A stretch of 44,932 nt of DNA from Citrobacter phage phiNP. The stretch is from sequence record OR565852; one strand, given 5' to 3'. The position numbers and the translations under genes were made by a program. Of this stretch, positions 19,137-44,807 are shown one piece after another (position 1 is the stretch's first letter; each line of letters begins with the position of its first letter). Under the pieces are notes generated by a model. The model did no database searches. It saw nothing but the letters and a program-made list of their open reading frames with translations, and was not told the origin of the DNA.

Positions 19137-21116
19137 TTACTGAGGTAGTAACTGTGATAACCGTCGGCGCTTCGGCGCCGCTGGCTCTTCGATGATGACG
19201 CCCGGCAGCCGGTAATCCGGTTTCGGCTGTGGATCCGGCTCTGCGGCAATCAGTCGTTCCGGGTTAGCGGCGATACTGTCGGCCTTCGCATTCAGCTTCA
19301 GCCCCATATGCAGCAAACCGCAGAGCGCGGCATAGCCGTAAACACGGCAGTCCAGCGCCTCGTTAGCCCTGCCTGCCAGTTGCTCCCAGACGCGATAGGT
19401 CTGGCCGCCGGAGTGTTTTACAACAGAGCGTTCGGCCAGTAGCTGCCCGAAATAATGCAAATCCCGGTCAGCCGGAAAATGCATATACGCCGATTTCGAC
19501 TCCCCGGCCTCCGGCGGCTCAATATGCAGTCGGTTGCGGATAGTATCCTTTGCTGAATTGACGCCAATAATGATTGGTCGGAACGTCGCCTTACTGCGCG
19601 ATGAGGGGCGCTTGGTCGGCCAGACGGGTGACCGCTTTCCGCCCCTGGCGGACTCCCCTTTTACCGCCCAGATACGGCGTCCCAGTCGCTCTTTGGCAAA
19701 CTCGTAAACCTTCTGGGTATGGTGGCCTCCGGAATCGTGGCAGGCGGCCATGATGGTGAATCCCCGGCCATCAGCCCGGCGCCATACCTGCTTCAGGTAC
19801 GCGTCCAGGCGCTGCCAGGGCTCTTCGGTTTCCAGGTCACCCTCGATCACGTCATAGGCAATGGACCAGGACTCTTCGTTACGTCCCCATCCGATGACCT
19901 CGATTTCAAAGCGATCGTCCTGGGTATCAATCCCAGCCGTCAGAACCGCCACGCCATCCGGCACCTCGGCGGCGTAAACCTCACAGCGCTCAGCCAGCCG
20001 TTTTTCACTCAGCGCCTTCTCCCCCCTGTCCTCATAGGGCTCCCCGAGGGTGGTGTTAATGAAGGTCTGGCGCTGCAGGGGATCGTCTTTTACCTTCAGC
20101 CACTCCGCGACCAGATATTTCCATGCCGCATTAGGGAACAGGCTGTATCCGGTCCAGATATGGAATCCCGCATGGCCGCTAAATGGCCGGGTCGCGCGCC
20201 ATTCACCATTTTTCACCATCCATGCTTTATCGCTGTGCTGAATCACACAGCCGTTGTGCCGACAGACGTAATAAGCGGATTCAGGAATGCCGTTGCCGTC
20301 CTTATCCTTTTCCCACTTGATACCGTAAGACGTATCCGGGCCGCCCCACTCCAGAACCTGATATTCGCCGCAGTGTGGACAGGGAACAAAATAGCGACGC
20401 TGATCGCTCTCCAGATACGCTTTCTCGATGCGACTGATGCCTTTCACCGTCGGTGTCGAGCCCAGCGCTATTTTTCGGTTCCAGAACGTTTCCGAGCGCT
20501 TGATCCCCAGCGCTATCTGGTCGCCTTCCGCACCAGCGCCACCTGCGGGGTACCCGTCCACCTCATCAAACAGGATGATGCGGCAGGTGATACGACGGAA
20601 ACCACCAGGACTGTTCGCCCCCACCATGGTCAGGTTAGCACCATTAGTGAACGTCTTTTTGAGGATGGTCTGATTACTGTCCTTCGCTTTGGGACTACCG
20701 CAAATGTCAGCCAGAACGGGGGTATCGCGCAGCATCGGCGATATTTCGGTTTTACTGTAATCCTCGGCATCCTCAACACGGGGCTGCACCACCAGGATCG
20801 GTGACGGGTCATGTGAGAGAAAATAGCCCACTACGTGGTCGAGGATCTTGGTATAGCCGACACGGGCCGATTTCATCACACTAATCTGGACAACAGCAGG
20901 ATCCGTAATGGCATCCATGATGCCGTCCTGGTACGCAAAGGAGCGAAATTTACCCGTCTGGGCGCTGGTTTCCTTGGACAGCACCGCATATTTATTGGCC
21001 CATTCGCTCAGCGATAGAGGTTCCGGCGGGCGAACGTCTGCACGGGCCTGGACCAGCGAGGCGCGGAAGCGGCGCCAGGCGTTATTGCTGATCCCCCCCT
21101 CTGCTGTCTGTGTCAC
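19137..21116 (-). CDS. Terminase large subunit (lambda gpA-like).
   Basis: A 659 aa protein immediately downstream of and overlapping the small-subunit gene. Confidence 0.8.
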   Translation of the reverse strand: MTQTAEGGISNNAWRRFRASLVQARADVRPPEPLSLSEWANKYAVLSKETSAQTGKFRSFAYQDGIMDAITDPAVVQISVMKSARVGYTKILDHVVGYFLSHDPSPILVVQPRVEDAEDYSKTEISPMLRDTPVLADICGSPKAKDSNQTILKKTFTNGANLTMVGANSPGGFRRITCRIILFDEVDGYPAGGAGAEGDQIALGIKRSETFWNRKIALGSTPTVKGISRIEKAYLESDQRRYFVPCPHCGEYQVLEWGGPDTSYGIKWEKDKDGNGIPESAYYVCRHNGCVIQHSDKAWMVKNGEWRATRPFSGHAGFHIWTGYSLFPNAAWKYLVAEWLKVKDDPLQRQTFINTTLGEPYEDRGEKALSEKRLAERCEVYAAEVPDGVAVLTAGIDTQDDRFEIEVIGWGRNEESWSIAYDVIEGDLETEEPWQRLDAYLKQVWRRADGRGFTIMAACHDSGGHHTQKVYEFAKERLGRRIWAVKGESARGGKRSPVWPTKRPSSRSKATFRPIIIGVNSAKDTIRNRLHIEPPEAGESKSAYMHFPADRDLHYFGQLLAERSVVKHSGGQTYRVWEQLAGRANEALDCRVYGYAALCGLLHMGLKLNAKADSIAANPERLIAAEPDPQPKPDYRLPGVIIEEPAAPKRRRLSQLLPQ

Positions 21117-26245: not shown

Positions 26246-27298
26246 TTATTTTTCTGGTAACGCTCTGATTTCTTCAACGGTCTGGTTAAACCGCTCTGTT
26301 TCCAGCTCGACGCCAATAGCCTTACGGCCTAAATCGATCGCCGCTTTTAACGTGGAACCGGAGCCCATGAAGAAATCAGCTACCACATCCCCGGGTCTGC
26401 TGCTCGCGCTGATGATTTGCTTCAGCATGTCAGCAGGCTTTTCGCAGGGATGTTTGCCGGGATAAAACTGGACGGGTTTATGCGTCCATACGTCGGTATA
26501 TGGCACGGCCACCGACACGGCAAAATACCGCCGAAGGGATTTGTACTCCTCCAGCAGTTCGGAATATTTACGGTTCAGTGACTGGTATGTTGCCACCAGT
26601 TGGTGATGAGGCTGCGCCAGTTCGGCACGCTGATGCTTCTCGATAGCGATCCGGGTGAAAAGCTCCTGCAATTTGAGGTAATCCGCTTCACCCGGCAGCT
26701 GCCACTGGCTGGAACCAAACCAGTGCGAAACCATGTTCTTCTTACCAGTGGCCTCGGTGATTTGTTTCGAGGTAACGCCAAGGGATTCCCGGGCATTCTG
26801 AAAATAGGTAATAAGCGGTGTCAGCACATGCTGTTTGAGTTCACCACATTTTGCCGCGTAACCATCGTCTTTGGGCTTGCATGGCCCCTGATAGTGTTCA
26901 GCAAACAGAACACGCTCAGTGGCCGGGAAATACGCGCGCAGACTTTCTTTATTGCAGCCATTCCAGCGACCGCTCGGTTTAGCCCAAATGATGTGGTTCA
27001 GGATGCTGAAGCGGTCGCGCATTAAGATTTCAATATCTGCAGCCAGCCGGTGGCCGCAAAACAGGTAAAGGCTACCGGCGGGTTTCAACACTCGCCAGAA
27101 TTCAGCCAGGCAGCGATCGAGCCAGCGAAGATAGTCTTCATCCCCTTTCCACTGGTTATCCCATCCGTTTGGCTTCACCTTGAAGTAAGGCGGATCGGTA
27201 ACAATCAGGTCGATGGAGTTATCAGGAAGGGTGGCGATGTAATGCAGGCAGTCAGCGTTGATTAACTCAACACTGTTTATTTTTACAGTATTTTTCAT
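26246..27298 (-). CDS. DNA methyltransferase, beta-class N6-adenine/N4-cytosine family (DPPY … FxGSGS order). It is the first long gene of the late operon.
   Basis: Motif IV LIVTDPPYF lies near the N-terminus and motif I DFFMGSGSTL near the C-terminus. Confidence 0.7.
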   Translation of the reverse strand: MKNTVKINSVELINADCLHYIATLPDNSIDLIVTDPPYFKVKPNGWDNQWKGDEDYLRWLDRCLAEFWRVLKPAGSLYLFCGHRLAADIEILMRDRFSILNHIIWAKPSGRWNGCNKESLRAYFPATERVLFAEHYQGPCKPKDDGYAAKCGELKQHVLTPLITYFQNARESLGVTSKQITEATGKKNMVSHWFGSSQWQLPGEADYLKLQELFTRIAIEKHQRAELAQPHHQLVATYQSLNRKYSELLEEYKSLRRYFAVSVAVPYTDVWTHKPVQFYPGKHPCEKPADMLKQIISASSRPGDVVADFFMGSGSTLKAAIDLGRKAIGVELETERFNQTVEEIRALPEK

Positions 27299-27837: not shown

Positions 27838-28533
27838 TCACATTTCCAGCGCATTAGCCACTTCCAGCCCTTCGCGCCTGATGAGGATCGTTTGCAGCGC
27901 CTGAGTGTCAAGCTCGACGAATGCCGCTTTAAATCTCGCCCAGTGCGATGCATACACACGTAACCAGGTTGAACGATCCACAGACATCATTCGCGCCAGC
28001 GCCGCACCGGCGTATTCTTTATATGTGTCATTGCTTCTGGCCGCAGCCACCTCCTGCGCTGCCAGCCAGACAAGACCGACCAGTTTTTTCACTACCCGTG
28101 ATTGCAGCTTCTTCTCTACCCTGCAATTCTGAAACTCATTCCATACATGCTGGCACATCAGCGTCTGGTACCTGAAGTTCAGATCGAAACCGTAGCAGTA
28201 ACGGATCCATGCCTGCTGGTAGTCATCCAGTGAATTGATTACCCGGCGCCACGGCGCGTAACTAAATTCCAGATCCTGCATTGGCGGGAACGGTCGCCGC
28301 CGGCTTCTCGTTTCCAGCACATAAACAGGCGTGGTTAATGCCTTCACAAGCGAGTGTCCACAGCCTTCCCCGCCCTCCAGTTCGATAAGAGGCTGCCCGC
28401 AGCGGGGCGTTTTATTTTTGTCTGCCGGTGGATGTTCGCTAAACGCCTGCAGTTGCCCCTTTGTCCCTTCAGATAAATTCGCCAGGGCGCGCTTTACTTC
28501 TATACGGGTATATTCAATGGCCTGTAAGTTCAT
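27838..28533 (-). CDS. Putative late-gene antiterminator Q.
   Basis: A 231 aa protein at the canonical position, downstream of the nin-like genes and directly upstream of the pR'/tR'-like elements and lysis cassette. Sequence alone is not diagnostic. Confidence 0.5.
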   Translation of the reverse strand: MNLQAIEYTRIEVKRALANLSEGTKGQLQAFSEHPPADKNKTPRCGQPLIELEGGEGCGHSLVKALTTPVYVLETRSRRRPFPPMQDLEFSYAPWRRVINSLDDYQQAWIRYCYGFDLNFRYQTLMCQHVWNEFQNCRVEKKLQSRVVKKLVGLVWLAAQEVAAARSNDTYKEYAGAALARMMSVDRSTWLRVYASHWARFKAAFVELDTQALQTILIRREGLEVANALEM

Positions 28534-28554: not shown

Positions 28555-29646
28555 TTACGCTTTAACAATTACGCCGATCGCCAGCGCCCGATCCAGAAAA
28601 CGAAACAGCAGTTCCAGCTGTGTGCCATATTTCTGCTCGAACGCCGCTACATCGGCATGCAATTTGTCGTGGCACTCTCTGCACAGAGGGAACACGAACA
28701 GGTCATGGGCTTTGGTAGCAGTGCCACCCATCCCATGACCGATAACATGATGCGGATCGTCTGCCGGACGGCGACAACACTCGCAGGGCTGACTTTTAAC
28801 CCAGCGCGTATACTTCTCATTCTCCCAGCGGCGGCGCTTAGGCCGTAACATGAACGACTCCGGTGATTCAGGATCTGCGCTCAATGCAATAACCCTTGGC
28901 TGCTGCTCCTGCATTACCTGCTGATTTTCCTGTGGCCTGCACCTTTTTAACGATCCAGCCGTTTTTATCCTCCTCTGCAGGGCGACGGTTGGTCGGTTAT
29001 CTGCGGCAATAATGTCGCTTTCTTTATATACAGATGGGAACGGTTCATAGGGCATCTGCATCACTCTGGCTGCCAGTTCTTCCGGAATGGCATCTGCCAC
29101 ACCGACATAAATAGCCCACCAGCACAGCTCAGCGATCGACAATTCCCGCTCGCGATTAAACCGAAGGCCGACCAGCACGGTATCAATGATCCAGTCAATA
29201 ACGTTACGGCGCGCTATACCAGCCAACAGATCGGTTGACTGCTCACGAAGTTTGTTATCGCAGTGCCAGCAAAGCATCATCGCGCCCGGGGCGTGTCGCA
29301 TGGTCACCAGCTCATGATGGTGATAATCCGAGTGCGGGTACTGACATTCACCGATATTCCGCTCAAGCCAGTGATCCAGCCCGGAGAGACTACCCGCAGC
29401 ACGGATCACCCTCTCATCAGTGAAGAATGGGATCAGCGCTTCATCCTCCGCCAGCGGCTGCCGGGCATCAGGAACACGGCCGGTTGACAGCCTGGCCATG
29501 TTCTCCGGTTCGGACTCCACCAGCACGCGCCCCGCGGAGAAAAGGCGCATTAACTCTTTGCCCGGTTTGAGCAGTACCACGCCAAGACGTGGCACAACTT
29601 CAGGGGTTAACAGCGCTCTCATGCAACCTCCCGCTGCTGGTTGCAT
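28555..29646 (-). CDS. NinG/DUF968-like protein with a C-terminal HNH/zinc-binding motif.
   Basis: The C-terminus reads …CECCRRPADDPHHVIGHGMGG…CRECHDKLH…. It occupies a nin-region position. Confidence 0.45.
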   Translation of the reverse strand: MQPAAGGCMRALLTPEVVPRLGVVLLKPGKELMRLFSAGRVLVESEPENMARLSTGRVPDARQPLAEDEALIPFFTDERVIRAAGSLSGLDHWLERNIGECQYPHSDYHHHELVTMRHAPGAMMLCWHCDNKLREQSTDLLAGIARRNVIDWIIDTVLVGLRFNRERELSIAELCWWAIYVGVADAIPEELAARVMQMPYEPFPSVYKESDIIAADNRPTVALQRRIKTAGSLKRCRPQENQQVMQEQQPRVIALSADPESPESFMLRPKRRRWENEKYTRWVKSQPCECCRRPADDPHHVIGHGMGGTATKAHDLFVFPLCRECHDKLHADVAAFEQKYGTQLELLFRFLDRALAIGVIVKA

Positions 29647-31379
29647 AACTCGGGCAGGTTGGCTTCTACCAGCGCACGGGCAAACGGGGGCGGAACGGCG
29701 TTACCGCAGCGCGCTACCTGCTTGTCTTTTGCATAGCGCTGGCCGCGATAATCACGATCGATAATGTAACCTTCAGGAAAGCCCTGGGCCTTATACAACT
29801 CATGAGGCTGCAACATGCGCATGCCAATATCGACGATCTGGTAGTCGGCACCATCAACCGTTACCAGGCCGAAGCGATCATTGGTTGTGACGGTTCCCAG
29901 CGGTTCATCCAGCGATACGCCGCTTTTTTCATTTCCGTAGTACTTCATCAGGAAGGCGCGAACCTCTCCGATATGCAGACCGCCGGCGGTCACCGTAGGC
30001 ATGGGCTGATCCACTTTTCGACCGTCTTTGCAGGTACCGCGCAGATGAACCAGGTGTGAGGTCACAACAGCATGGTGATCAGTGGTCGTAACGGTATGCG
30101 CAGGTGCATCCATAGCGGCACCCGGCCCCGTATAATTACCGCCGAAGTGTTTCGCCAGAAAGGTGGTCACCAGCTGCGACTTTCCACCACCGCCAGCGGT
30201 TACTGTTCCATTGGGTTCATCAGCGCCGTGTCCGGTACTGTTACCAAACTGGCGGGCTATCATTGGCGCCACCAGGCAGGCGCGGGACTCTTTTAACACG
30301 GTGTGGGCCGGTTTATTTATCGCCCGCGGCTTCGCCTGATATTCGCTACCACCATTACCGGCGATAAACGGGGTAACGACAGCGTATCCATGGGTTTTGG
30401 TAATAGTCTGCAGCGGACTATCAATGCCCTGCCCACGAAAGCAGTCATATGCCGTGCGGCTGCTGGTGTGATTACACTTCACAATAAACGGTGTCGGGTT
30501 GTTCAGCACAAACCGCTCAATACCACGCGCAATGCGCTTCAGCGTATTTTCCGCCAGCAGCTTTGGGCGCTCAAAAATGCTCTGGCAGGGGATTGACCAG
30601 TCGATACACTCCGCCGCGGTACGCCATGGCGCCAGCCTGCCGCTCTGAACTTCCAGCGATTTAGGATCGCCATGTGTTGGCTCTGGCCAGTGAATTTCCT
30701 CACCATCACAGCGCATGACCATGAAGAATCGCTTGCGGATCGTCGGCGCGCCGAAATCGCAGGCTCGCAGTTCGCGATAATCGATGCCGTAGCCCAGCCC
30801 GTTAATAAGGCGCTGCGCCTGCTCGCTGCCTTTAGGTACAGACAGGAACTCGCACACCTCAGACAGGGCGGGATGATCCGCAGGTATGCCGGTGGATAGC
30901 ATGCCAACAAACGCCGCGAAGGTTTCGCCCGCGCGGGATGGATCCGGGCGCATTTCGTCTGCCAGCAGCGGCCCCCACGTTTTGAACTCCTCCACGTTCT
31001 CCAGCATCATGACACGCGGGCGCTTCGCCAGCGCCCAGCGTACTACTACCCACGCCAGACCGCGAATCTCTTTTTTTACCGGCTTAGCACCCTTCGCCTT
31101 TGAGAAGTGGCGGCAATCAGGGCTAAACCAGGCCAGGCCGACCGGATTACCACCAGTGGCCGCCAGCGGATCAACGTCAAACACGGACTCGCAGTAATGC
31201 AGGGTATCGGGGTGGTTAGTTTTGTGCATAGCGATCGCGTTTTCATCGTGGTTGATGGCAATATCCACGCTGCGCCCGATCGCCAGCTCGATCCCGGTAC
31301 TCGCGCCGCCGCCACCAGCAAAGTTATCAACGATAATTTCACGCATTGACGGCTCCCTGCATGCTGTAGACCAGACCAC
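29619..31379 (-). CDS. C5-cytosine DNA methyltransferase (Dcm-like) with an expanded, repeat-containing variable region. It is probably multispecific.
   Basis: Motif I IVDNFAGGGGAS, motif IV FSPDCRHFS, motif VI MLENV and motif X CGNAVPP are all present. The variable region has about six repeats of the TRD-like element xPxxT(V/I)T(A)xGGG…(L/V)V: DSPLQTITK, NKPAHTVLK, DEPNGTVTAGGGG, DAPAHTVTTT, DQPMPTVTAGG and DEPLGTVTTN. Confidence 0.75.
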   Translation of the reverse strand: MVWSTACREPSMREIIVDNFAGGGGASTGIELAIGRSVDIAINHDENAIAMHKTNHPDTLHYCESVFDVDPLAATGGNPVGLAWFSPDCRHFSKAKGAKPVKKEIRGLAWVVVRWALAKRPRVMMLENVEEFKTWGPLLADEMRPDPSRAGETFAAFVGMLSTGIPADHPALSEVCEFLSVPKGSEQAQRLINGLGYGIDYRELRACDFGAPTIRKRFFMVMRCDGEEIHWPEPTHGDPKSLEVQSGRLAPWRTAAECIDWSIPCQSIFERPKLLAENTLKRIARGIERFVLNNPTPFIVKCNHTSSRTAYDCFRGQGIDSPLQTITKTHGYAVVTPFIAGNGGSEYQAKPRAINKPAHTVLKESRACLVAPMIARQFGNSTGHGADEPNGTVTAGGGGKSQLVTTFLAKHFGGNYTGPGAAMDAPAHTVTTTDHHAVVTSHLVHLRGTCKDGRKVDQPMPTVTAGGLHIGEVRAFLMKYYGNEKSGVSLDEPLGTVTTNDRFGLVTVDGADYQIVDIGMRMLQPHELYKAQGFPEGYIIDRDYRGQRYAKDKQVARCGNAVPPPFARALVEANLPELCNQQREVA

Positions 31380-32220
31380 CAGCCACGGTGATTATTTCGC
31401 TGGTGGGCATACGCTCAAGCCAGAGCTGATTGATGTTCGCCTTCAGCTTGTTCTGCTGGGCCAACTCCAGAGAATCCGCTCCCTCAACCTGATTGAATAC
31501 CAGGCCAACCTCCAGCGGCCAGATACGCGACTCCACTTCTGGCTGTCCCAAGCCAGCAGGCATAACGTCTTCCACCGGGGCTGGCGGCACCACTTTTTCC
31601 GCGGCAAATTGGGCCAGCGACATAAATGCCCGCCCCTTAGCCTCTAGATCACTGCGATGAATGTAGCTGAAACGCTCGCCCCGCCATGTCTTATCGAATA
31701 CCACTATGGCGCCAGCGAAAAATGCGCTGGTAGGCTGCTGTTTCTCGTCTGCCGGGATAAACCATGCAGGCAGGTCGAAGCCAATGCGGCCACGGATGAA
31801 AACAATATGATCAGCATCTTCAGGCCACCATGTTTCACTAGGTGCCGCTTTGATGAGGAACACATAGCGACCGCCCTTCTCACGCATGGCAGAGGCATAG
31901 CTCATGATATGACTCATGCCGGTGATCGCCTGCTTACCGTCGTATTGCGATCGGCTATAGGGCGGATTGCCGAACGCGGCGCCACCGATGGCGATCAGCA
32001 TTTCCGACCAATCCTGTGTCAGAGCGTTATCTTCGGCGGTGTACCAGACCGGGCATTTGGCGTTACTGTCGTCGGCGAACAAATCCAGCATCAGCGGCCC
32101 AAACATCGCATTGATGCCCCAGAACAACAGTTCCGGCGTGCGCCACTGATCGCCAACTTCTTTTAACTCGTGGACTGGCTTGCTACGTAGTTCAGCCAGC
32201 GCCAGGCAGTATTTATTCAT
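31339..32220 (-). CDS. Phage Dam-family (PF05869-like) N6-adenine DNA methyltransferase.
   Basis: …DQWRTPELLFWGINAMFGPLMLDLFADDSNAKCPVWYTAEDNAL…AFGNPPYSR… gives the TP…LF, NAKC and NPPYS signatures. The gene is translationally coupled to the replication gene (ATGA). Confidence 0.7.
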   Translation of the reverse strand: MNKYCLALAELRSKPVHELKEVGDQWRTPELLFWGINAMFGPLMLDLFADDSNAKCPVWYTAEDNALTQDWSEMLIAIGGAAFGNPPYSRSQYDGKQAITGMSHIMSYASAMREKGGRYVFLIKAAPSETWWPEDADHIVFIRGRIGFDLPAWFIPADEKQQPTSAFFAGAIVVFDKTWRGERFSYIHRSDLEAKGRAFMSLAQFAAEKVVPPAPVEDVMPAGLGQPEVESRIWPLEVGLVFNQVEGADSLELAQQNKLKANINQLWLERMPTSEIITVAGGLVYSMQGAVNA

Positions 32221-33089
32221 GAGCGAAATCCCGAGTTTTCTGGTAGTGAATAATCCACATCTTTGAAGGTTGCCCGCGCAGCAGGGCTGTGGTTGTTAAC
32301 CCACTCGCCATTTTTGCGCTCAGGGCGACCAGCCTTGTGCCATTTGTTCGCGGCCTGCAGGTAACCAGGGAATTTCGTTGGGTGAAACAGTGTCGTAGGT
32401 CGAAGGTACTCGGACATTTTAAAATCCTGCCCCCATTTCTCGGTCATGTACTCCACAACCAGAGTGAGTTCGTAGATGGTGAACCCCTCCCCCAGCCGGG
32501 CGCGAATATTCTCCAGCGACGTTTTCCCCACCTGATAACGGGATCCTGTTTTTTGGTTCAGAAAAGTCAGAACCTGTTTAGCCTGATCAGTGATCTCCAC
32601 AGCAGGGGCGGGTTGCGACGCAACCGGACAAGAAGTTTTTTTATCTGATGGATCAGTAGTTGATTTTACTGACGGATCCCCGCCAGATTCTGACGGGTGA
32701 AAACCGCCATTTTTATCAGATTTTGACGCCTCAATTTTTGACGGGTCAGATTTTGATGCGTCAGATTTTGACGGGTCAGAATCTGGCAGGTGAGAGAATG
32801 CCGCCGCCTGGAGTTTCCTCACATTAAGTCGATAAACATTGGATGCATTACGGTTACCCTGGCGGCGAGCGGTACGGGTCAACCACCCTTCAGCTTCCAG
32901 CTTTGCAATAGCCGTTCTGACTGTGCTGGACCCCGCCCCAATCTGGCGAGCGATAGTCTCAATGGACGGCCAGGAAACGCCTTCATCGTTACTGAAGTCT
33001 GCCAGGCGTGCCATGATTGCGACACTGGAAATCTTCATGCCAGCCGCCGCACAGCCATCCCAGACGTATGCAGATAATTTAACGCTCAC
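32217..33089 (-). CDS. Replication initiation protein with an N-terminal winged HTH, a C-terminal conserved phage replication domain and iterons embedded in its coding sequence. The start is GTG.
   Basis: The N-terminus reads …ISSVAIMARLADFSNDEGVSWPSIETIARQIGAGSSTVRTAIAKLEAEGWL…. An internal S/D/K linker (DSDPSKSDASKSDPSKIEASKSD) is encoded by the direct repeats. The arrangement mirrors lambda O with ori-lambda. Confidence 0.6.
   Translation of the reverse strand: MSVKLSAYVWDGCAAAGMKISSVAIMARLADFSNDEGVSWPSIETIARQIGAGSSTVRTAIAKLEAEGWLTRTARRQGNRNASNVYRLNVRKLQAAAFSHLPDSDPSKSDASKSDPSKIEASKSDKNGGFHPSESGGDPSVKSTTDPSDKKTSCPVASQPAPAVEITDQAKQVLTFLNQKTGSRYQVGKTSLENIRARLGEGFTIYELTLVVEYMTEKWGQDFKMSEYLRPTTLFHPTKFPGYLQAANKWHKAGRPERKNGEWVNNHSPAARATFKDVDYSLPENSGFRS
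32683..32795. repeat. Origin iterons: about six direct repeats of the consensus TCAGATTTTGACGGG inside the replication gene.
   Basis: The repeat copies are CCAGATTCTGACGGG, TCAGATTTTGACGCC, TCAATTTTTGACGGG, TCAGATTTTGATGCG, TCAGATTTTGACGGG and TCAGAATCTGGCAGG, at 15-16 bp periodicity. Confidence 0.6.
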
Positions 33090-34959: not shown

Positions 34960-35057
34960 AAAGCCCCCTATAATTGCGCAATACGCATATTAATGTGTAC
35001 TTACGACTTGCGCAAGTTGCTTTGCATATCACGCAAAAACAACCTGTAATAGAACGC
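34960..35057. promoter_or_regulatory. OR-like immunity control region with divergent promoters and repeated TTGCGCAA-type operator half-palindromes.
   Basis: AATTGCGCAATACGCAT (34970-34986), CTTGCGCAAGTTGC (35008-35021) and TCACGCAAAAAC (35029-35040) lie between the cro and cI starts. Confidence 0.5.
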
Positions 35058-35753
35058 ATGAACATAGGAAACCGCATTAGAGAATTGCGCCTCGCAAGAG
35101 GCATGAAAATTTCTGACCTTGCTGATGCTGTTGGTATTGACGGCGCGAACGTTTCTCGCGTAGAGACCGGTAAGCAAAAGTCATTTACTGAACAATCGCT
35201 TAGCAAATATGCAAATGCGCTCGGCGTTGATGTTGCTGAACTCTTTACACCTTCCATAAATGAAACTACTGTATACAAATCCAGTGAGAATAATCCAGTT
35301 TATGGAGAGGATGACCCGGTGTTTAGAGTCGAAATGCTTGATGTCAGTGCCAGCGCTGGCATGGGTTTTATACAGGGTAGTGATGTCATCGATGTCATCA
35401 GATCGATTGAATACAACAGCGAACGGGCGGTCGCTCTGTTTGGTGGAAGAACGCCAGATACCGTTAAAGTGATCAACGTTCGCGGTGATAGTATGGCTGA
35501 TACTATAGAGCCAGGTGACCTAATCTTTGTTGATGTTTCAATTAATGAATTTGATGGTGATGGCATTTATGTGTTTGGTTTTGACGAGAAAATTTATGTC
35601 AAACGGTTACAGATGATTCCCGATAAAATTCTGGTGATATCTGATAATCCCAAATACAGAGAGTGGTCAGTTGATCAATCTAACGAAGACCGTTTTTATG
35701 TGTTTGGGAAAGTGATGCTTAGCCAATCACAAGCAATGAAAAGACACGGATAA
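35058..35753 (+). CDS. cI: CI-like repressor (N-terminal HTH plus C-terminal S24 LexA-like autopeptidase).
   Basis: The HTH is …IRELRLARGMKISDLADAVGIDGANVSRVETGKQ…. The S24 catalytic region is …VRGDSMADTIEPGDLIFVD…, with the catalytic Lys in …VKRL…. The track start at 34974 is probably an over-extension. Confidence 0.75.
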   Translation: MNIGNRIRELRLARGMKISDLADAVGIDGANVSRVETGKQKSFTEQSLSKYANALGVDVAELFTPSINETTVYKSSENNPVYGEDDPVFRVEMLDVSASAGMGFIQGSDVIDVIRSIEYNSERAVALFGGRTPDTVKVINVRGDSMADTIEPGDLIFVDVSINEFDGDGIYVFGFDEKIYVKRLQMIPDKILVISDNPKYREWSVDQSNEDRFYVFGKVMLSQSQAMKRHG

Positions 35754-40721: not shown

Positions 40722-40928
40722 ATGCTGAGCCTCGATTGTGTTCCCATCTCAACTTATTGCAAAGAGACAGGCGAAACTCCTGATGCGATCAACAAGCGCG
40801 TACAGCGCGGTGTGTGGCGTGAAGGGGTTCAGGTGCTGAAAGTCGAAGGCGTTAAGGAGAGATGGATAGATCTTAGTGAGGTTGCAAAATGGGCCAGACA
40901 GAATCGCCTAAACTCCCGCGCGGCGTAA
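40722..40928 (+). CDS. xis: Excisionase-like protein (Xis).
   Basis: A 68 aa basic protein immediately upstream of and overlapping int. A GGAGA RBS is present. Sequence begins MLSLDCVPISTYCKETGETPDAINKRVQRGVW…. Confidence 0.5.
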   Translation: MLSLDCVPISTYCKETGETPDAINKRVQRGVWREGVQVLKVEGVKERWIDLSEVAKWARQNRLNSRAA

Positions 40929-42055
40929 CCATCAGGAAACATCGCAACGGTCAAACCATCAATATTACTTTTACATATAAAGGGGTGAAATGCCGTGAGC
41001 CTCTTTCTAATCTGGACGTAACCCCTAAAAATATCAAATACGCCGAGCGCACACTCGGCGAAATCCATAACAAGATCGAAAGGGGAACGTTTGTTTACGC
41101 GGAATACTTTCCCCGTTCTACCCGATTAAAAATTTTCGGAAACGCTGCCGCAGGAAAAACGGTGAAGATGTATCTGGATGAGTATCTGGTGATCTGCGAA
41201 ACGAGGAAGCTTTCCCCTTCGACAATAGGCGGGTACAAGAAATGCCGAAGCGCATTGTCATCACTTCATATTTATCCTGCAAGTGAGTTGACGCCGGCTG
41301 CATTGAAGACATGGATCCAGAACCAGAAAACGACATTGAAGACCATCCGAAACCAGTTGTCATTCCTGCGTTCTGCATTGGATGAAGCAGTGACAGATGG
41401 TGTGCTTCAGATTAACCCTGTATCTCTGGTAACAGCCTCACGATACCAAAGTGATAAATCAGAGGCAGAAAGTAGTTATGTGGTTGATCCGCTATCACCA
41501 GCAGAAGTTGATGCTTTGCTCTCTGCTACTGGCAATAAGCAGTGGGAGAATCTTTTCCGGTTCGCGATACAAACAGGGCTGCGTAGTTCCGAATTGTGTG
41601 CTCTTCGTTGGCGTGATATCGACTTTGTAGGGAAGACTGCCCATATCCAGAGCGCCAGTGTTGTTGGTGTGATCAAAGGGACCAAGACAAAAGCAGGTAC
41701 CCGTAAAGTTGAACTCACAGATGAAGCAATGTCGGCTCTGATAAATCAGAAACCGTTCACGTTCATGAAGGGCGCTACTGTCTTTGAGGATCCAAAGACC
41801 AATAAGCCGTGGGCAAGTGCTGATGCAATTAGAAAAAAGGCATGGGTGCCGACATTGCGAAAGGCTGGTATTCGGTACAGAAACCCATATCAGACTAGAC
41901 ATACATTCGCCACATGCCATATCAGCCGGGGAACAAACTTGTTCTGGCTTGCGACTCAAATGGGACATAAAGGCCCAGAGATGCTTTTCCGTCACTACGG
42001 CTCATATCTGAAGGAATATGATGGACAAACAAGCCTGAAGAAGATAAAAATATAA
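40889..42055 (+). CDS. int: Tyrosine integrase (lambda Int family, IntS-like).
   Basis: The catalytic region …RHTFATCHISRGTNLFWLATQMGHKGPEMLFRHYGSY… carries the R…HxxR…Y signature. The gene is transcribed towards attR. Confidence 0.8.
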   Translation: MGQTESPKLPRGVTIRKHRNGQTINITFTYKGVKCREPLSNLDVTPKNIKYAERTLGEIHNKIERGTFVYAEYFPRSTRLKIFGNAAAGKTVKMYLDEYLVICETRKLSPSTIGGYKKCRSALSSLHIYPASELTPAALKTWIQNQKTTLKTIRNQLSFLRSALDEAVTDGVLQINPVSLVTASRYQSDKSEAESSYVVDPLSPAEVDALLSATGNKQWENLFRFAIQTGLRSSELCALRWRDIDFVGKTAHIQSASVVGVIKGTKTKAGTRKVELTDEAMSALINQKPFTFMKGATVFEDPKTNKPWASADAIRKKAWVPTLRKAGIRYRNPYQTRHTFATCHISRGTNLFWLATQMGHKGPEMLFRHYGSYLKEYDGQTSLKKIKI

Positions 42056-42058
42056 TCC

Positions 42059-43846
42059 ATGTCTGAATTATTGGCCGCAATTTGTGGCCATTTCATGGAA
42101 CAAGGTACAAACATGGCAAATCCAATAACCAAACTAAAAAAAATAAACGTTGTAAAATTTCGAGGACTAAAAAATATAAATATAGAATTTGGTTCGCGAC
42201 TAACTGTTATTTGTGGTAAAAACGGCACATCTAAATCGACAATTCTTGGTATTATCGCCCAAATTTTTAGTTTTACAAAAGATCTGTCTAAGAACCCCGA
42301 GGTTGATTTAACACAATATAAGACATTAACTAATGGCACCTTCAAGTCAGCTTTCAGTGAACATTTTAGACTTTCAGAACAATTTGATACTGCAGGTTCA
42401 ATGGAAGTCAGGATTAGTGTTTATGATGGTGCATCTAACAAACATCTTGAAAAGCTAACATTGGGTCTATACAGCTCCAGTGACAGGGATAAATCAAGGC
42501 CAATAGTCAGGGGCAATGATTCCATACCGGGGAAAAACCAAAGTAGAAACGTCACTCATCCAGTTATTTTTCTAAGCTTAGCAAGACTTCTCCCTATTAC
42601 TCTACGGACTGATTACTCAACAAGGGATGTTCAGTATATCAATGAAAACGCAGATGATATAAGAATAATGAGCAATCAACTCTTACTTAAGAATAATGGG
42701 TGCTCAGTAACAGCCACGAAAGGGACGATCGATTCAATGGTCGTACACGGCGATAATTACGACCATCAATCAGTCTCTGTTGGTGAGGATAATGTTGGAC
42801 AATTAATTCAAGCAATATTTTCCTTTAAAAGGCTAAAAGAACTTTATGACGATTATCATGGAGGTATTTTATTAATTGATGAAGCGGACGCAGGTCTTTT
42901 CCCTGCTGCTCAGTTAGAATTAATTGACATTCTAGCTAAAGCAGCTAAAAAATATGACTTGCAAATAATCATGACTTCTCACTCACCATTAATAATAGAA
43001 GATATTTTCAATCGTTCCAAACAAGATGCCAACGGATTTAAAACAATATATCTGACAGATACTTATGGTGATATTAAAACAAAAGACAATCTATCATGGG
43101 CCGATATCAATGCTGATTTGCATGTTGAAACTGTAAAAATAAATGATGAGATTAGCCTTCCAAAAGCCAACGTATATTTTGAAGATAAAGAAGGCTTCGA
43201 TTTTTTCAAACAATTGATAATTGATAGAAGAATAAACAGAATATTGAATCCATTAGGAAACATAAATATTAGTTGTACTGCTATCCTAGATTTAATGGCT
43301 AGAAAAGTCCCTGAGTTTACTAACAAAAGCCTAGTTGTCTTAGACGGTGATGTTGCTCTCGATAACAGTGACAATGCTAAAAAAGCGAAAAAAGAGAGAA
43401 GCTTATGCTTGCTTCCAGGCATTCTTCCCCCAGATCAAATGATTTTTGAATTCTTATATAACTTACCTCCAGACGATATATATTGGAACAATAAAAATAG
43501 ATTTACAAAAGCAGTATTTATGAAAATAACAAAAGACATAATTACAACATTAAAAATAAGTAACTATCCTATTGATTTACTAAATTCTATAGAGAATTAT
43601 AAAAAATCAAACAAAAACCATGGCGGAGTGGTTAGAAAACTATTTAAAGATTTTGTCCATACGCCTGAGTTCCTAGCACAAGTAAAAGGGCGAGTTAAAG
43701 ATAATCCTTATCGATATTGGGTCGAGAAACACCCCGTAGAATCCGATAATTTCAAGCATGAATTAATCAAAAACCTTAAAATTATTATGACAAATGGACA
43801 TGGCGTTGACTCTGCTACCATCACTTCGTATCTGTCTGGCAACTAA
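42059..43846 (+). CDS. OLD-family ABC-type ATPase with a C-terminal TOPRIM-like nuclease domain (putative anti-phage or abortive-infection nuclease) in an AT-rich cargo cassette.
   Basis: Walker A is …TVICGKNGTSKSTILGII… and Walker B is …GGILLIDEADAGLF…. The ABC H-loop is …MTSHSPLII…. The C-terminal half carries …VYFEDKEGFDF… and …LVVLDGDVALDNSD…, which fit the Toprim Glu and DxD elements. The ATG lies 3 nt after the int stop. The gene is markedly AT-rich. Confidence 0.5.
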   Translation: MSELLAAICGHFMEQGTNMANPITKLKKINVVKFRGLKNINIEFGSRLTVICGKNGTSKSTILGIIAQIFSFTKDLSKNPEVDLTQYKTLTNGTFKSAFSEHFRLSEQFDTAGSMEVRISVYDGASNKHLEKLTLGLYSSSDRDKSRPIVRGNDSIPGKNQSRNVTHPVIFLSLARLLPITLRTDYSTRDVQYINENADDIRIMSNQLLLKNNGCSVTATKGTIDSMVVHGDNYDHQSVSVGEDNVGQLIQAIFSFKRLKELYDDYHGGILLIDEADAGLFPAAQLELIDILAKAAKKYDLQIIMTSHSPLIIEDIFNRSKQDANGFKTIYLTDTYGDIKTKDNLSWADINADLHVETVKINDEISLPKANVYFEDKEGFDFFKQLIIDRRINRILNPLGNINISCTAILDLMARKVPEFTNKSLVVLDGDVALDNSDNAKKAKKERSLCLLPGILPPDQMIFEFLYNLPPDDIYWNNKNRFTKAVFMKITKDIITTLKISNYPIDLLNSIENYKKSNKNHGGVVRKLFKDFVHTPEFLAQVKGRVKDNPYRYWVEKHPVESDNFKHELIKNLKIIMTNGHGVDSATITSYLSGN

Positions 43847-43925: not shown

Positions 43926-44807
43926 ATGCGTTTTAACACCCCACTTCGTTATCCTGGCGGCAAAGGCAAGCTTTCTAATTTCATGCTTCGGATTATTGAA
44001 GATAATAAGCTTTCGCCTATACATTATGCAGAGCCATATGCTGGGGGTGCTGGTTTAGCGCTGAAGCTGTTACACTTAAATGTAGCTGAAAAAATCATTC
44101 TTAATGATATTAATATCTCAGTTTATGCTTTTTGGCACAGTGTATTAAATAATGCAGATCATTTATGTGCTTTAATTGAGGATACTGAAGTCACAATGGA
44201 TGAGTGGTTCAAACAGAAAGAAATAATTAATCATCCAAGAGACCATGATATGCTAACAATTGGTTTTTCTACCTTTTTTCTTAATAGAACAAATCGTTCT
44301 GGAATATTAAAAGGCGGTGTAATTGGTGGTAAAAATCAAGAAGGGCAATGGAAACTTGATGCTCGTTATAACAAGAGCGATTTAATTTCTCGGATTCAGA
44401 AAATATCAAAAAACCGTGAAAGAATAGATTTGTATAACATGGATGCAATTGATTTCATAAAAAAAATAGTTGTTCAATTGCCTAAAAAATCATTAACATA
44501 TTTAGATCCGCCATATTATATAAAAGGTAAGGGATTATATATCAATCATTATGAACATAGTGACCATGTTAATGTTGCAAAAGTAGTGCAGCATGATATT
44601 AAAACACCGTGGATTGTTTCTTACGATAACACTCCTGAGATCCAAGGTATGTATAAGGCATCATCATTAGTGTATGGAATAAACTACAGTGCTCAAGATC
44701 GATATAAGGGCTCAGAAGTGATGTTCTTCAGTAAACGATTGAAAGTCTTTAAAACCGATGATCCAACTAAGGTAAAAGCACCTACCAATAAAAATGCTAT
44801 GAGCTAG
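43926..44807 (+). CDS. Dam-like (D12 class, alpha) N6-adenine DNA methyltransferase in an AT-rich cargo cassette.
   Basis: …LRYPGGKGKL… matches the Dam KWAGGK motif. Motif I is …AEPYAGGAGL… and motif IV is …YLDPPYY…. A TTGACA -35 element lies upstream at 43906. Confidence 0.7.
   Translation: MRFNTPLRYPGGKGKLSNFMLRIIEDNKLSPIHYAEPYAGGAGLALKLLHLNVAEKIILNDINISVYAFWHSVLNNADHLCALIEDTEVTMDEWFKQKEIINHPRDHDMLTIGFSTFFLNRTNRSGILKGGVIGGKNQEGQWKLDARYNKSDLISRIQKISKNRERIDLYNMDAIDFIKKIVVQLPKKSLTYLDPPYYIKGKGLYINHYEHSDHVNVAKVVQHDIKTPWIVSYDNTPEIQGMYKASSLVYGINYSAQDRYKGSEVMFFSKRLKVFKTDDPTKVKAPTNKNAMS

Follow-up and report, generated by a model that had tools for sequence, protein, structure and literature searches.

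The window analysed here, a stretch of 44,932 nucleotides from Citrobacter phage phiNP (sequence record OR565852), encodes on its minus strand a predicted DNA cytosine-C5 methyltransferase, a divergent member of family PF00145. Six tandem units stand in the slot that holds the target-recognition domain (TRD) of C5-methyltransferases, and this array probably sets the target range of the enzyme. Sequence comparison identifies the gene as an added member of a known, experimentally sampled family of relaxed-specificity phage 5-methylcytosine (m5C) methyltransferases, and its host element as a lambdoid prophage. The same comparison indicates that the units are modules which are gained, lost and recombined in register. 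We tentatively read these modules as alternative mini-TRDs. The features of the gene are listed below, in the order of the protein.

29619..31346, minus strand: C5-cytosine DNA methyltransferase coding sequence, ATG start, 575 amino acids (aa) plus stop
31305..31322, minus strand: motif I, FAGGGG, S-adenosylmethionine (AdoMet) binding
31113..31124, minus strand: motif IV variant SPDC, catalytic Cys kept, canonical Pro replaced by Asp
30993..31001, minus strand: motif VI, ENV
30729..30746, minus strand: motif VIII, PTIRKR (canonical QxRxR)
30480..30704, minus strand: conserved segment with many invariant residues, aa 215-289, between motif VIII and the array
30330..30428, minus strand: unit 1, type T05 (GIDSPLQTITKTHGYAVVTPFIAGNGGSEYQAK), a type usually first in the array
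30228..30323, minus strand: unit 2, type T06 (AINKPAHTVLKESRACLVAPMIARQFGNSTGH)
30123..30227, minus strand: unit 3, type T01 (GADEPNGTVTAGGGGKSQLVTTFLAKHFGGNYTGP)
30018..30116, minus strand: unit 4, type T03 (AMDAPAHTVTTTDHHAVVTSHLVHLRGTCKDGR)
29916..30014, minus strand: unit 5, type T02 (VDQPMPTVTAGGLHIGEVRAFLMKYYGNEKSGV), penultimate in 93% of its occurrences
29832..29915, minus strand: unit 6, type T04 (SLDEPLGTVTTNDRFGLVTVDGADYQIV), last in 99% of its occurrences, abutting motif IX
29778..29819, minus strand: motif IX, RMLQPHELYKAQGF
29688..29705, minus strand: motif X, GNAVPP

The array is defined by the pattern P..T[VIL][TL], which occurs six times with its Pro at 322, 357, 389, 426, 459 and 493 (586-aa numbering) and a period of 32-37 aa. 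A chance motif is ruled out by 20,000 shuffles of the protein, which gave a mean pattern count of 0.06 and a maximum of 3. For most pairs of units the score exceeds the 99th percentile obtained with shuffled units. A hidden Markov model (HMM) of the unit, whose consensus is GVDEPLHTVTAGGHHALVTAFLAKYYGTEYQGV, finds exactly six units with E values of about 1e-13 to 1e-18 each. They are bounded at residues 307-339, 342-373, 374-408, 411-443, 445-477 and 478-505 (575-aa numbering). The about six tandem repeats of 30-40 aa noticed in the initial annotation are therefore real, with a unit length of about 33 residues. Tandem Repeats Finder detects no tandem repeat at the DNA level, and thus the duplication of the units is old. 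Solved methyltransferases align with the family only outside the array, from which we place the units in the variable TRD slot between motifs VIII and IX. The architecture of the window protein is T05-T06-T01-T03-T02-T04. Its last unit, T04, has a position equivalent to the canonical TRD core.

The catalytic core is well assigned. PF00145 is matched with 73.5 bits against a gathering cut-off of 22 (E = 2.7e-20), and the matches are confined to both ends of the protein. The score for NCBIfam TIGR00675 'dcm' is 54.4 and stays under the cut-off of 100.65, so the protein is regarded as a divergent member of the C5-methyltransferases. Motifs I, IV (Cys), VI, VIII, IX and X are found in order and are invariant across 141 aligned family members. 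Motifs I, IV, VI and X had all been called canonical, and this is correct for I, VI and X. Motif IV reads SPDC in place of the canonical PPCQ, with the catalytic Cys retained, and this form is invariant in 141 of 141 aligned relatives. The family profile aligns with the solved methyltransferases 3g7u, M.HhaI, M.HaeIII, DNMT1 and MET1 only at profile positions 17-206 (motifs I-VIII) and 479-531 (motifs IX-X). Foldseek with the AlphaFold model agrees with this alignment and gives a probability of 1.00 to 3g7u, DNMT1, M.HaeIII and M.HhaI. The carboxymethyltransferase CmoX (8yf3) is present among the structural matches. For the catalytic domain, residues 1-250 and 510-570, an AlphaFold prediction with 141 diverse sequences has a predicted local distance difference test score (pLDDT) that exceeds 90. 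The family score, the motifs and the Foldseek matches together confirm the C5-methyltransferase identity that was proposed initially.

The family is very large. An exhaustive HMMER search with a limit of E <= 1e-3 found 9,106 representative clusters (50% identity), of which 2,732 pass the stricter limit of E <= 1e-30. The best 150 representatives range from 403 to 1,113 aa in length and carry 2-12 units, with about 35 aa of additional protein length per unit. Among 120 close homologues (57-96% identity) the number of units is 4 to 11 and again tracks the length. Phage matches come from Escherichia (Flotzy, 69%), Pectobacterium (ZF40), Vibrio, Pseudomonas (F116 and others), Burkholderia, Rhizobiales and Aeromonas, and more distant ones from Gordonia, Mycobacterium and Arthrobacter. 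Some members of 840-990 aa (P0086, P0423, P0431 and P0351) also contain Hint/intein and LAGLIDADG domains (PF13403, PF14528, PF14890) or an HNH domain (PF13392). Because of these domains, selfish elements appear to have been inserted in the methyltransferase gene of these members.

Unit types were obtained by average-linkage clustering; single linkage had merged 2,507 of 2,662 unique units into one cluster. The main types and their places in the array are as follows.

T01: ..TV.AGGKHALV.AFLAKHYGG, middle
T02: ..TITAGGH.GEVRAFL.KYYG, penultimate in 93%
T03: ..TVTT.DHHALVTSHLVKLRGTC, middle
T04: ..TVTTKDRFGLVTV..G.DYQIV, last in 99%
T05: first in 69%

The types are discrete, with conserved signatures, and they are orthologous across relatives that have diverged by more than 50%. 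This orthology across distant relatives rules out concerted evolution or recent duplication. The positions P5, T8, V18 and G27 form a near-invariant scaffold of the unit, and the information that defines a type is located at the hairpin-loop positions 13-16 and the tail positions 19-33. As many as 146 different architectures are observed among 150 unbiased representatives, and each middle type is missing from some natural protein, so that it is individually dispensable. Traces of the exchange itself are seen in homologues 72-85% identical (P0053, P0004 and P0020). In P0053 the N-terminal half of unit 3 is fused in register to the C-terminal half of unit 5, and in P0004, P0020, P0024 and P0064 whole modules are inserted directly after the LVT strand.

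The fold of a unit and the boundary of a module were approached by coupling analysis. The mean-field calculation had an effective number of sequences (Meff) of 555 for single units and of about 270 for unit pairs. It is under-powered and confounded by the unit types, and for this reason the couplings serve merely as a hint. Within a unit they suggest a beta-hairpin plus a short helix. Between units, co-variation links the tail of unit i to the hairpin of unit i+1 and fades at i+2. This pattern agrees with the positions of insertions and deletions in the homologues, which suggests that the evolutionary module consists of helix, linker and hairpin. Adjacent units (i and i+1) are coupled with each other as strongly as positions within one unit.

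Members of the family have been tested experimentally. The closest is ARM81mr_p29 from Aeromonas phage phiARM81mr, which is 59% identical to the window protein over 579 columns, full-length (E = 0). It has the motif SPDCKHFS and five units, T06-T01-T03-T02-T04, i.e. the array of the window protein without its first module T05. Full-length identity, SPDC and five of six modules in the same order assign the window gene to this sampled family. The ARM81mr_p29 gene adjoins the replication proteins O and P, and the window gene is likewise located in the replication module of a temperate phage. ARM81mr_p29 is reported to have relaxed specificity (PMC5537653). The novelty implied in the initial annotation was thus overstated, as an enzyme of this kind from an Aeromonas phage is already on record. 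ARM81ld_p31 from phiARM81ld, which like ARM81mr_p29 and the Paracoccus enzymes belongs to the relaxed-specificity group studied by the Dziewit and Radlinska lab, is 50% identical (E = 0) and also carries SPDC. Pyei1_p05, with 36% identity to the window protein and SPDC as well, is about 69% identical to JCM7686_0772/_2655 from a Paracoccus aminophilus prophage. The units of the Paracoccus and Sinorhizobium members are more divergent than those of the window protein, and many have no assignable type. Proteins of this kind, about 700 aa in length, are described as widespread (PMC5537653).

The Paracoccus enzymes JCM7686_0772/_2655 are reported to have relaxed specificity (PMC3925955; also PMC6536676). 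In a panel of 28 restriction enzymes, including nine with 4-bp sites, partial protection was observed at 16 sites and full protection at none (PMC3925955). The partly protected sites are those of AluI, BglI, Bme1390I, BsuRI, CaiI, EcoO109I, EcoRII, Hin6I, HpaII, HpyF10VI, MspI, NciI, PauI, PvuII, TaiI and XhoI, and there was no protection against the 12 other enzymes (PMC3925955). The authors sum up the activity of the tested relatives as modification of a C in CC (PMC5537653, PMC3925955). By our own reading of the Paracoccus protection table (PMC3925955), a G-C-H context is common to many of the partly protected sites. At the level of the motif, this context is similar to GpC[C/T], which is methylated by the TET-associated C5-methyltransferases of phages (PMC8256090). 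Our literature searches, with the primary ARM81 paper outside their coverage, found neither an earlier description of the tandem-module architecture in this family nor an explanation of how relaxed specificity arises. The modular array is a concrete candidate for its basis.

Several TRDs in one chain are known from enzymes of the Bacillus phages, M.SPRI, M.Rho11sI, M.H2I and the phi3T/SPbeta group. We retrieved the SPR, rho11s and H2 sequences and compared them directly. They have one catalytic core and several tandem cores in the same slot between motifs VIII and IX. In SPR three cores are found, SPTITTNKGEGLKIAV (279), SHTLSASDW..NAVV (309) and EPAFTVNTIDRHGVAV (355), with spacings of 30 and 46 aa; in rho11s four are visible by eye, three of which were found by the pattern search. 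The pattern P-x-x-T-[ILV]-[TS], followed after 5-10 residues by a hydrophobic residue and V, is common to SPR/rho11s and to the array of the window protein, and the period is 30-49 aa in the former and 32-37 aa in the latter. As is proposed for the window enzyme, the Bacillus phage enzymes are orphan enzymes of temperate phages used against host restriction. However, motif IV is SPCQ/PC in them and SPDC in the window family, and they have 3-4 TRDs while the window family has 2-12 highly regular units. The multispecific Bacillus phage enzymes methylate discrete 4-6 bp sites, which differs from the partial protection over many sites by the tested relatives of the window protein. The window protein may work like an SPR-type enzyme, by analogy, although it has no demonstrable membership in the SPR/phi3T/rho11s group.

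The solved enzymes M.HaeIII and M.HhaI share the catalytic fold and the motif order with the window protein, but they have one TRD core instead of six units and PC instead of DC in motif IV. The best alignment of the unit profile is that with WNEPAFTVQASGRQCQ, the TRD core of HaeIII at 231-246; it is short and not significant. T04 directly precedes motif IX, where HaeIII has its TRD core element. In hhalign the unit is placed on the TRD core each time, at 231-246 of HaeIII (P = 0.015), 417-432 of rho11s (P = 0.027) and 354-368 of SPR (P = 0.12). Since the TRDs of HaeIII, SPR and rho11s are all of the GGCC type (EPAFTV), these three placements amount to about one independent observation. A functional analogy is also seen to the TET-associated GpC[C/T] C5-methyltransferases, M.CviPI and M.EcoGII, mobile-element enzymes that escape many restriction systems by methylating contexts of very high frequency; M.EcoGII acts on adenine and belongs to another class of methyltransferases.

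We put forward the following mechanism, to which we give slightly less than even confidence. The gene encodes a predicted orphan, prophage-borne, AdoMet-dependent C5-methyltransferase with a standard catalytic core, and it is part of the early/replication operon (replication initiator, Dam, C5-methyltransferase, DUF968, Q). The enzyme would presumably be made upon prophage induction and methylate the replicating phage DNA. Each module would act as an alternative mini-TRD and present the single active site with a short context of its own, perhaps about 2-4 bp long. Together, these contexts would then give a broad, 'relaxed' methylation that blunts many C5-sensitive restriction enzymes, and gain, loss and in-register recombination of modules would retune the target range. 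The broad protection in this scheme is taken from the literature on the homologues.

Several observations weigh against this mechanism. The array is poorly predicted as a structure: with the alignment of 141 sequences, AlphaFold gives a pLDDT of 35-68 over residues 289-507 and no folded independent modules, and AlphaFold2 with a shallow alignment (25 sequences, 79% mean identity) a pLDDT of 35.5. Neighbouring units may be coupled because they pack into one superstructure, or only because they are inherited together. T02 and T04 are near-constant in fixed positions, and 91% of the 510 proteins analysed contain T01. This distribution resembles a scaffold more than a set of swappable specificity cassettes. 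Similarity of the units to known TRDs is also not significant at the sequence level. The unit HMM gives no significant score against HhaI, HaeIII, SPR, rho11s and H2 (at most 2.9 bits), the unit profile has no match to PDB sequences at E <= 10, and the hhalign probability is not significant, at most 3% overall and 0.5-1.8% for SPR/rho11s. On the experimental side, the protection in the tested relatives is only partial (PMC3925955), which could also result from one recognition mode of low specificity or from methylation that is incomplete in vivo. Phi2LM21_p23, 36% identical to the window protein, was inactive in E. coli (PMC5537653), and the literature examined on the family holds no mapping of targets to units. 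The description of the repeats as TRD-like in the initial annotation therefore stands for slot, core pattern and period, and lacks significant sequence similarity. Alignment to M.HhaI, one of the comparisons it had proposed, places the array between motifs VIII and IX, and the comparison with SPR gives no significant TRD match. Its suggestion of SPR-like multispecificity is partly supported, by the tandem cores in the TRD slot and the broad protection by relatives, while the TRD homology is not significant and the protection by relatives is partial at every protected site.

Some of these points would be explained by a single composite recognition domain, the main alternative, which we regard as less likely than the mechanism above. 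Here only the constant T02-T04 end would be the TRD, for a short or degenerate context (CC or G-C-H). The other units would be a structural or non-specific DNA-binding extension, such as a spacer, a clamp or a processivity element, and their copy number would tune affinity and not specificity. The fixed ends of the array (T04 last in 99%, T02 penultimate in 93%) and the equal strength of i/i+1 and within-unit coupling are consistent with this. So are the only partial protection of every protected site, the activity summarised by the authors as C in CC, the G-C-H context that we read from many protected Paracoccus sites, and the existence of phage C5-methyltransferases with 2-3 nt motifs, GpC[C/T] and GpCN (PMC8256090). 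A spacer, however, would not be expected to keep many discrete types with conserved loop and tail residues across distant taxa, nor to produce 146 architectures in 150 representatives, and the protected ACGT and CCWGG sites fit no one simple context. The opposite extreme is a strict SPR-type enzyme with six independent TRDs, each with a discrete 4-6 bp target that is fully methylated. It would account for the slot, the core pattern and the similar period shared with SPR/rho11s and for units that are modular and individually dispensable, and a review confirms that enzymes of Bacillus phages hold several TRDs in a single chain and thereby overcome many restriction-modification systems (PMC12707154). 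We nevertheless consider it improbable. It fits poorly because no site of the 28-enzyme panel was fully protected in the tested homologues, the homology to the SPR TRDs is not significant, and several unit types are near-universal, so that relatives would share most of their targets.

It is also conceivable, at a very low probability, that the enzyme is inactive on DNA in its host or makes a product other than 5-methylcytosine, with SPDC as the mark of an altered chemistry as in CmoX. Motif IV does depart from the near-universal Pro-Cys, CmoX is among the structural matches, Phi2LM21_p23 was inactive in E. coli (PMC5537653), and the literature examined assayed the relatives by restriction protection only and not by base identity. 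But the tested enzymes ARM81mr_p29 and ARM81ld_p31 carry SPDC, as does Pyei1_p05, which makes inactivity or altered chemistry unlikely, and the tested enzymes block 5mC-sensitive restriction enzymes. In addition, the AdoMet and catalytic motifs are all invariant across the family, and the open reading frame (ORF) is intact and lies within an operon.

If the mini-TRD mechanism applies to the family as a whole, it would have wider meaning. With confidence well short of even, we propose that this very large and almost unstudied family (2,732 clusters, from Proteobacteria to phages of Actinobacteria) uses a hypervariable array of 2-12 mini-TRD cassettes, shuffled through recombination in register, as an evolvable, combinatorial anti-restriction device, in which each type reads one short context and the repertoire can be read from the module string. 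It would then be a far more extensive counterpart of the SPR/phi3T enzymes, either independently evolved or anciently diverged. If module strings encode targets, this would explain how one catalytic core serves many DNA contexts, a structural question dating from the work on Bacillus phages. The anti-restriction range of phages would become predictable from sequence across thousands of prophages, and natural swappable recognition modules would be available for the engineering of cytosine methyltransferases. If the modules are only structural, the gene encodes no more than an ordinary orphan methyltransferase of a prophage, set apart by its unusual repeat domain. The plain annotation 'Dcm-like' of such prophage genes hides a probable broad-range enzyme, which can confound the interpretation of 5mC methylomes and cloning, e.g. 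through McrBC sensitivity.

The ORF described initially, 29619..31379 on the minus strand with 586 aa counted from GTG, is present in the window, although its start is better placed downstream. Most likely, translation begins at the ATG at 31346-31344 and gives 575 aa, whereas the GTG at 31379 adds 11 residues. We prefer the ATG because a Shine-Dalgarno sequence, GGGAG at 31357-31353, lies 6 nt upstream, because the ATG overlaps the stop codon of the Dam gene (ATGCGTGA, 31346-31339, minus strand), and because P0001, a 96% identical homologue from Erwinia tracheiphila, has a length of 575 aa. On the other side, the ORF of the downstream DUF968 gene has an internal ATG at 29622 that overlaps the methyltransferase stop codon (ATGA) and is preceded by GGGAGG at 29632-29627. 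The DUF968 protein may therefore start at 29622 rather than 29646. The stop/start overlaps and Shine-Dalgarno sequences on both sides suggest that Dam, the C5-methyltransferase and DUF968 are translationally coupled.

31353..31357, minus strand: Shine-Dalgarno GGGAG ahead of ATG 31346
31339..32220, minus strand: phage N6-adenine methyltransferase (PF05869 Dam, TIGR01712), upstream in the same operon, overlapping the C5 start
28555..29646, minus strand: DUF968/HNH-like gene, downstream of the methyltransferase

The surrounding genes agree with the enterobacterial prophage that had been proposed from the start. The nearest relatives of the methyltransferase are from Erwinia, Enterobacter, Citrobacter, Salmonella and Klebsiella, and the window genes include an integrase, a CI-like repressor, CII, a Q antiterminator and a terminase. 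The methyltransferase gene is placed between the replication initiator/Dam and Q.

40889-42055: integrase
34974-35753: CI-like repressor
32217-33089: CII, Ant and replication initiator
27838-28533: Q antiterminator
26246-27298, minus strand: PF01555 methyltransferase
19137-21116: terminase

Three methyltransferase genes are found on one strand of the early region: the PF05869 Dam-type N6-adenine enzyme, the C5 enzyme and the PF01555 N6/N4 enzyme. The last one lies downstream of Q and matches PADLOC MTase_II PDLC03265 with E = 2e-148. This set looks like a methylation battery. Past the integrase there is a low-GC stretch (33-47% GC) with two genes on the plus strand, 42059-43846 and 43926-44807. 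One encodes an AAA_15/AAA_21 ATPase with weak PtuA/AriA/GajA-like matches, and the other a D12-class adenine methyltransferase with a full-length match to PD-Lambda-5_B (E = 2.8e-123). Together the two genes probably make up a PD-lambda-5 defence system that the prophage carries at its edge as cargo.

In the DUF968 protein there is a weak match to HNHc_6 (E = 7e-4), and its C-terminus is rich in Cys and His. E. coli prophages that partly match this region also have a DUF968 gene near methyltransferase genes. In Escherichia phage Flotzy (1707-3041) the gene ahead of the 69% identical methyltransferase is annotated as PAPS reductase, in the place that Dam takes in the window, so the upstream partner of the methyltransferase varies within the family.

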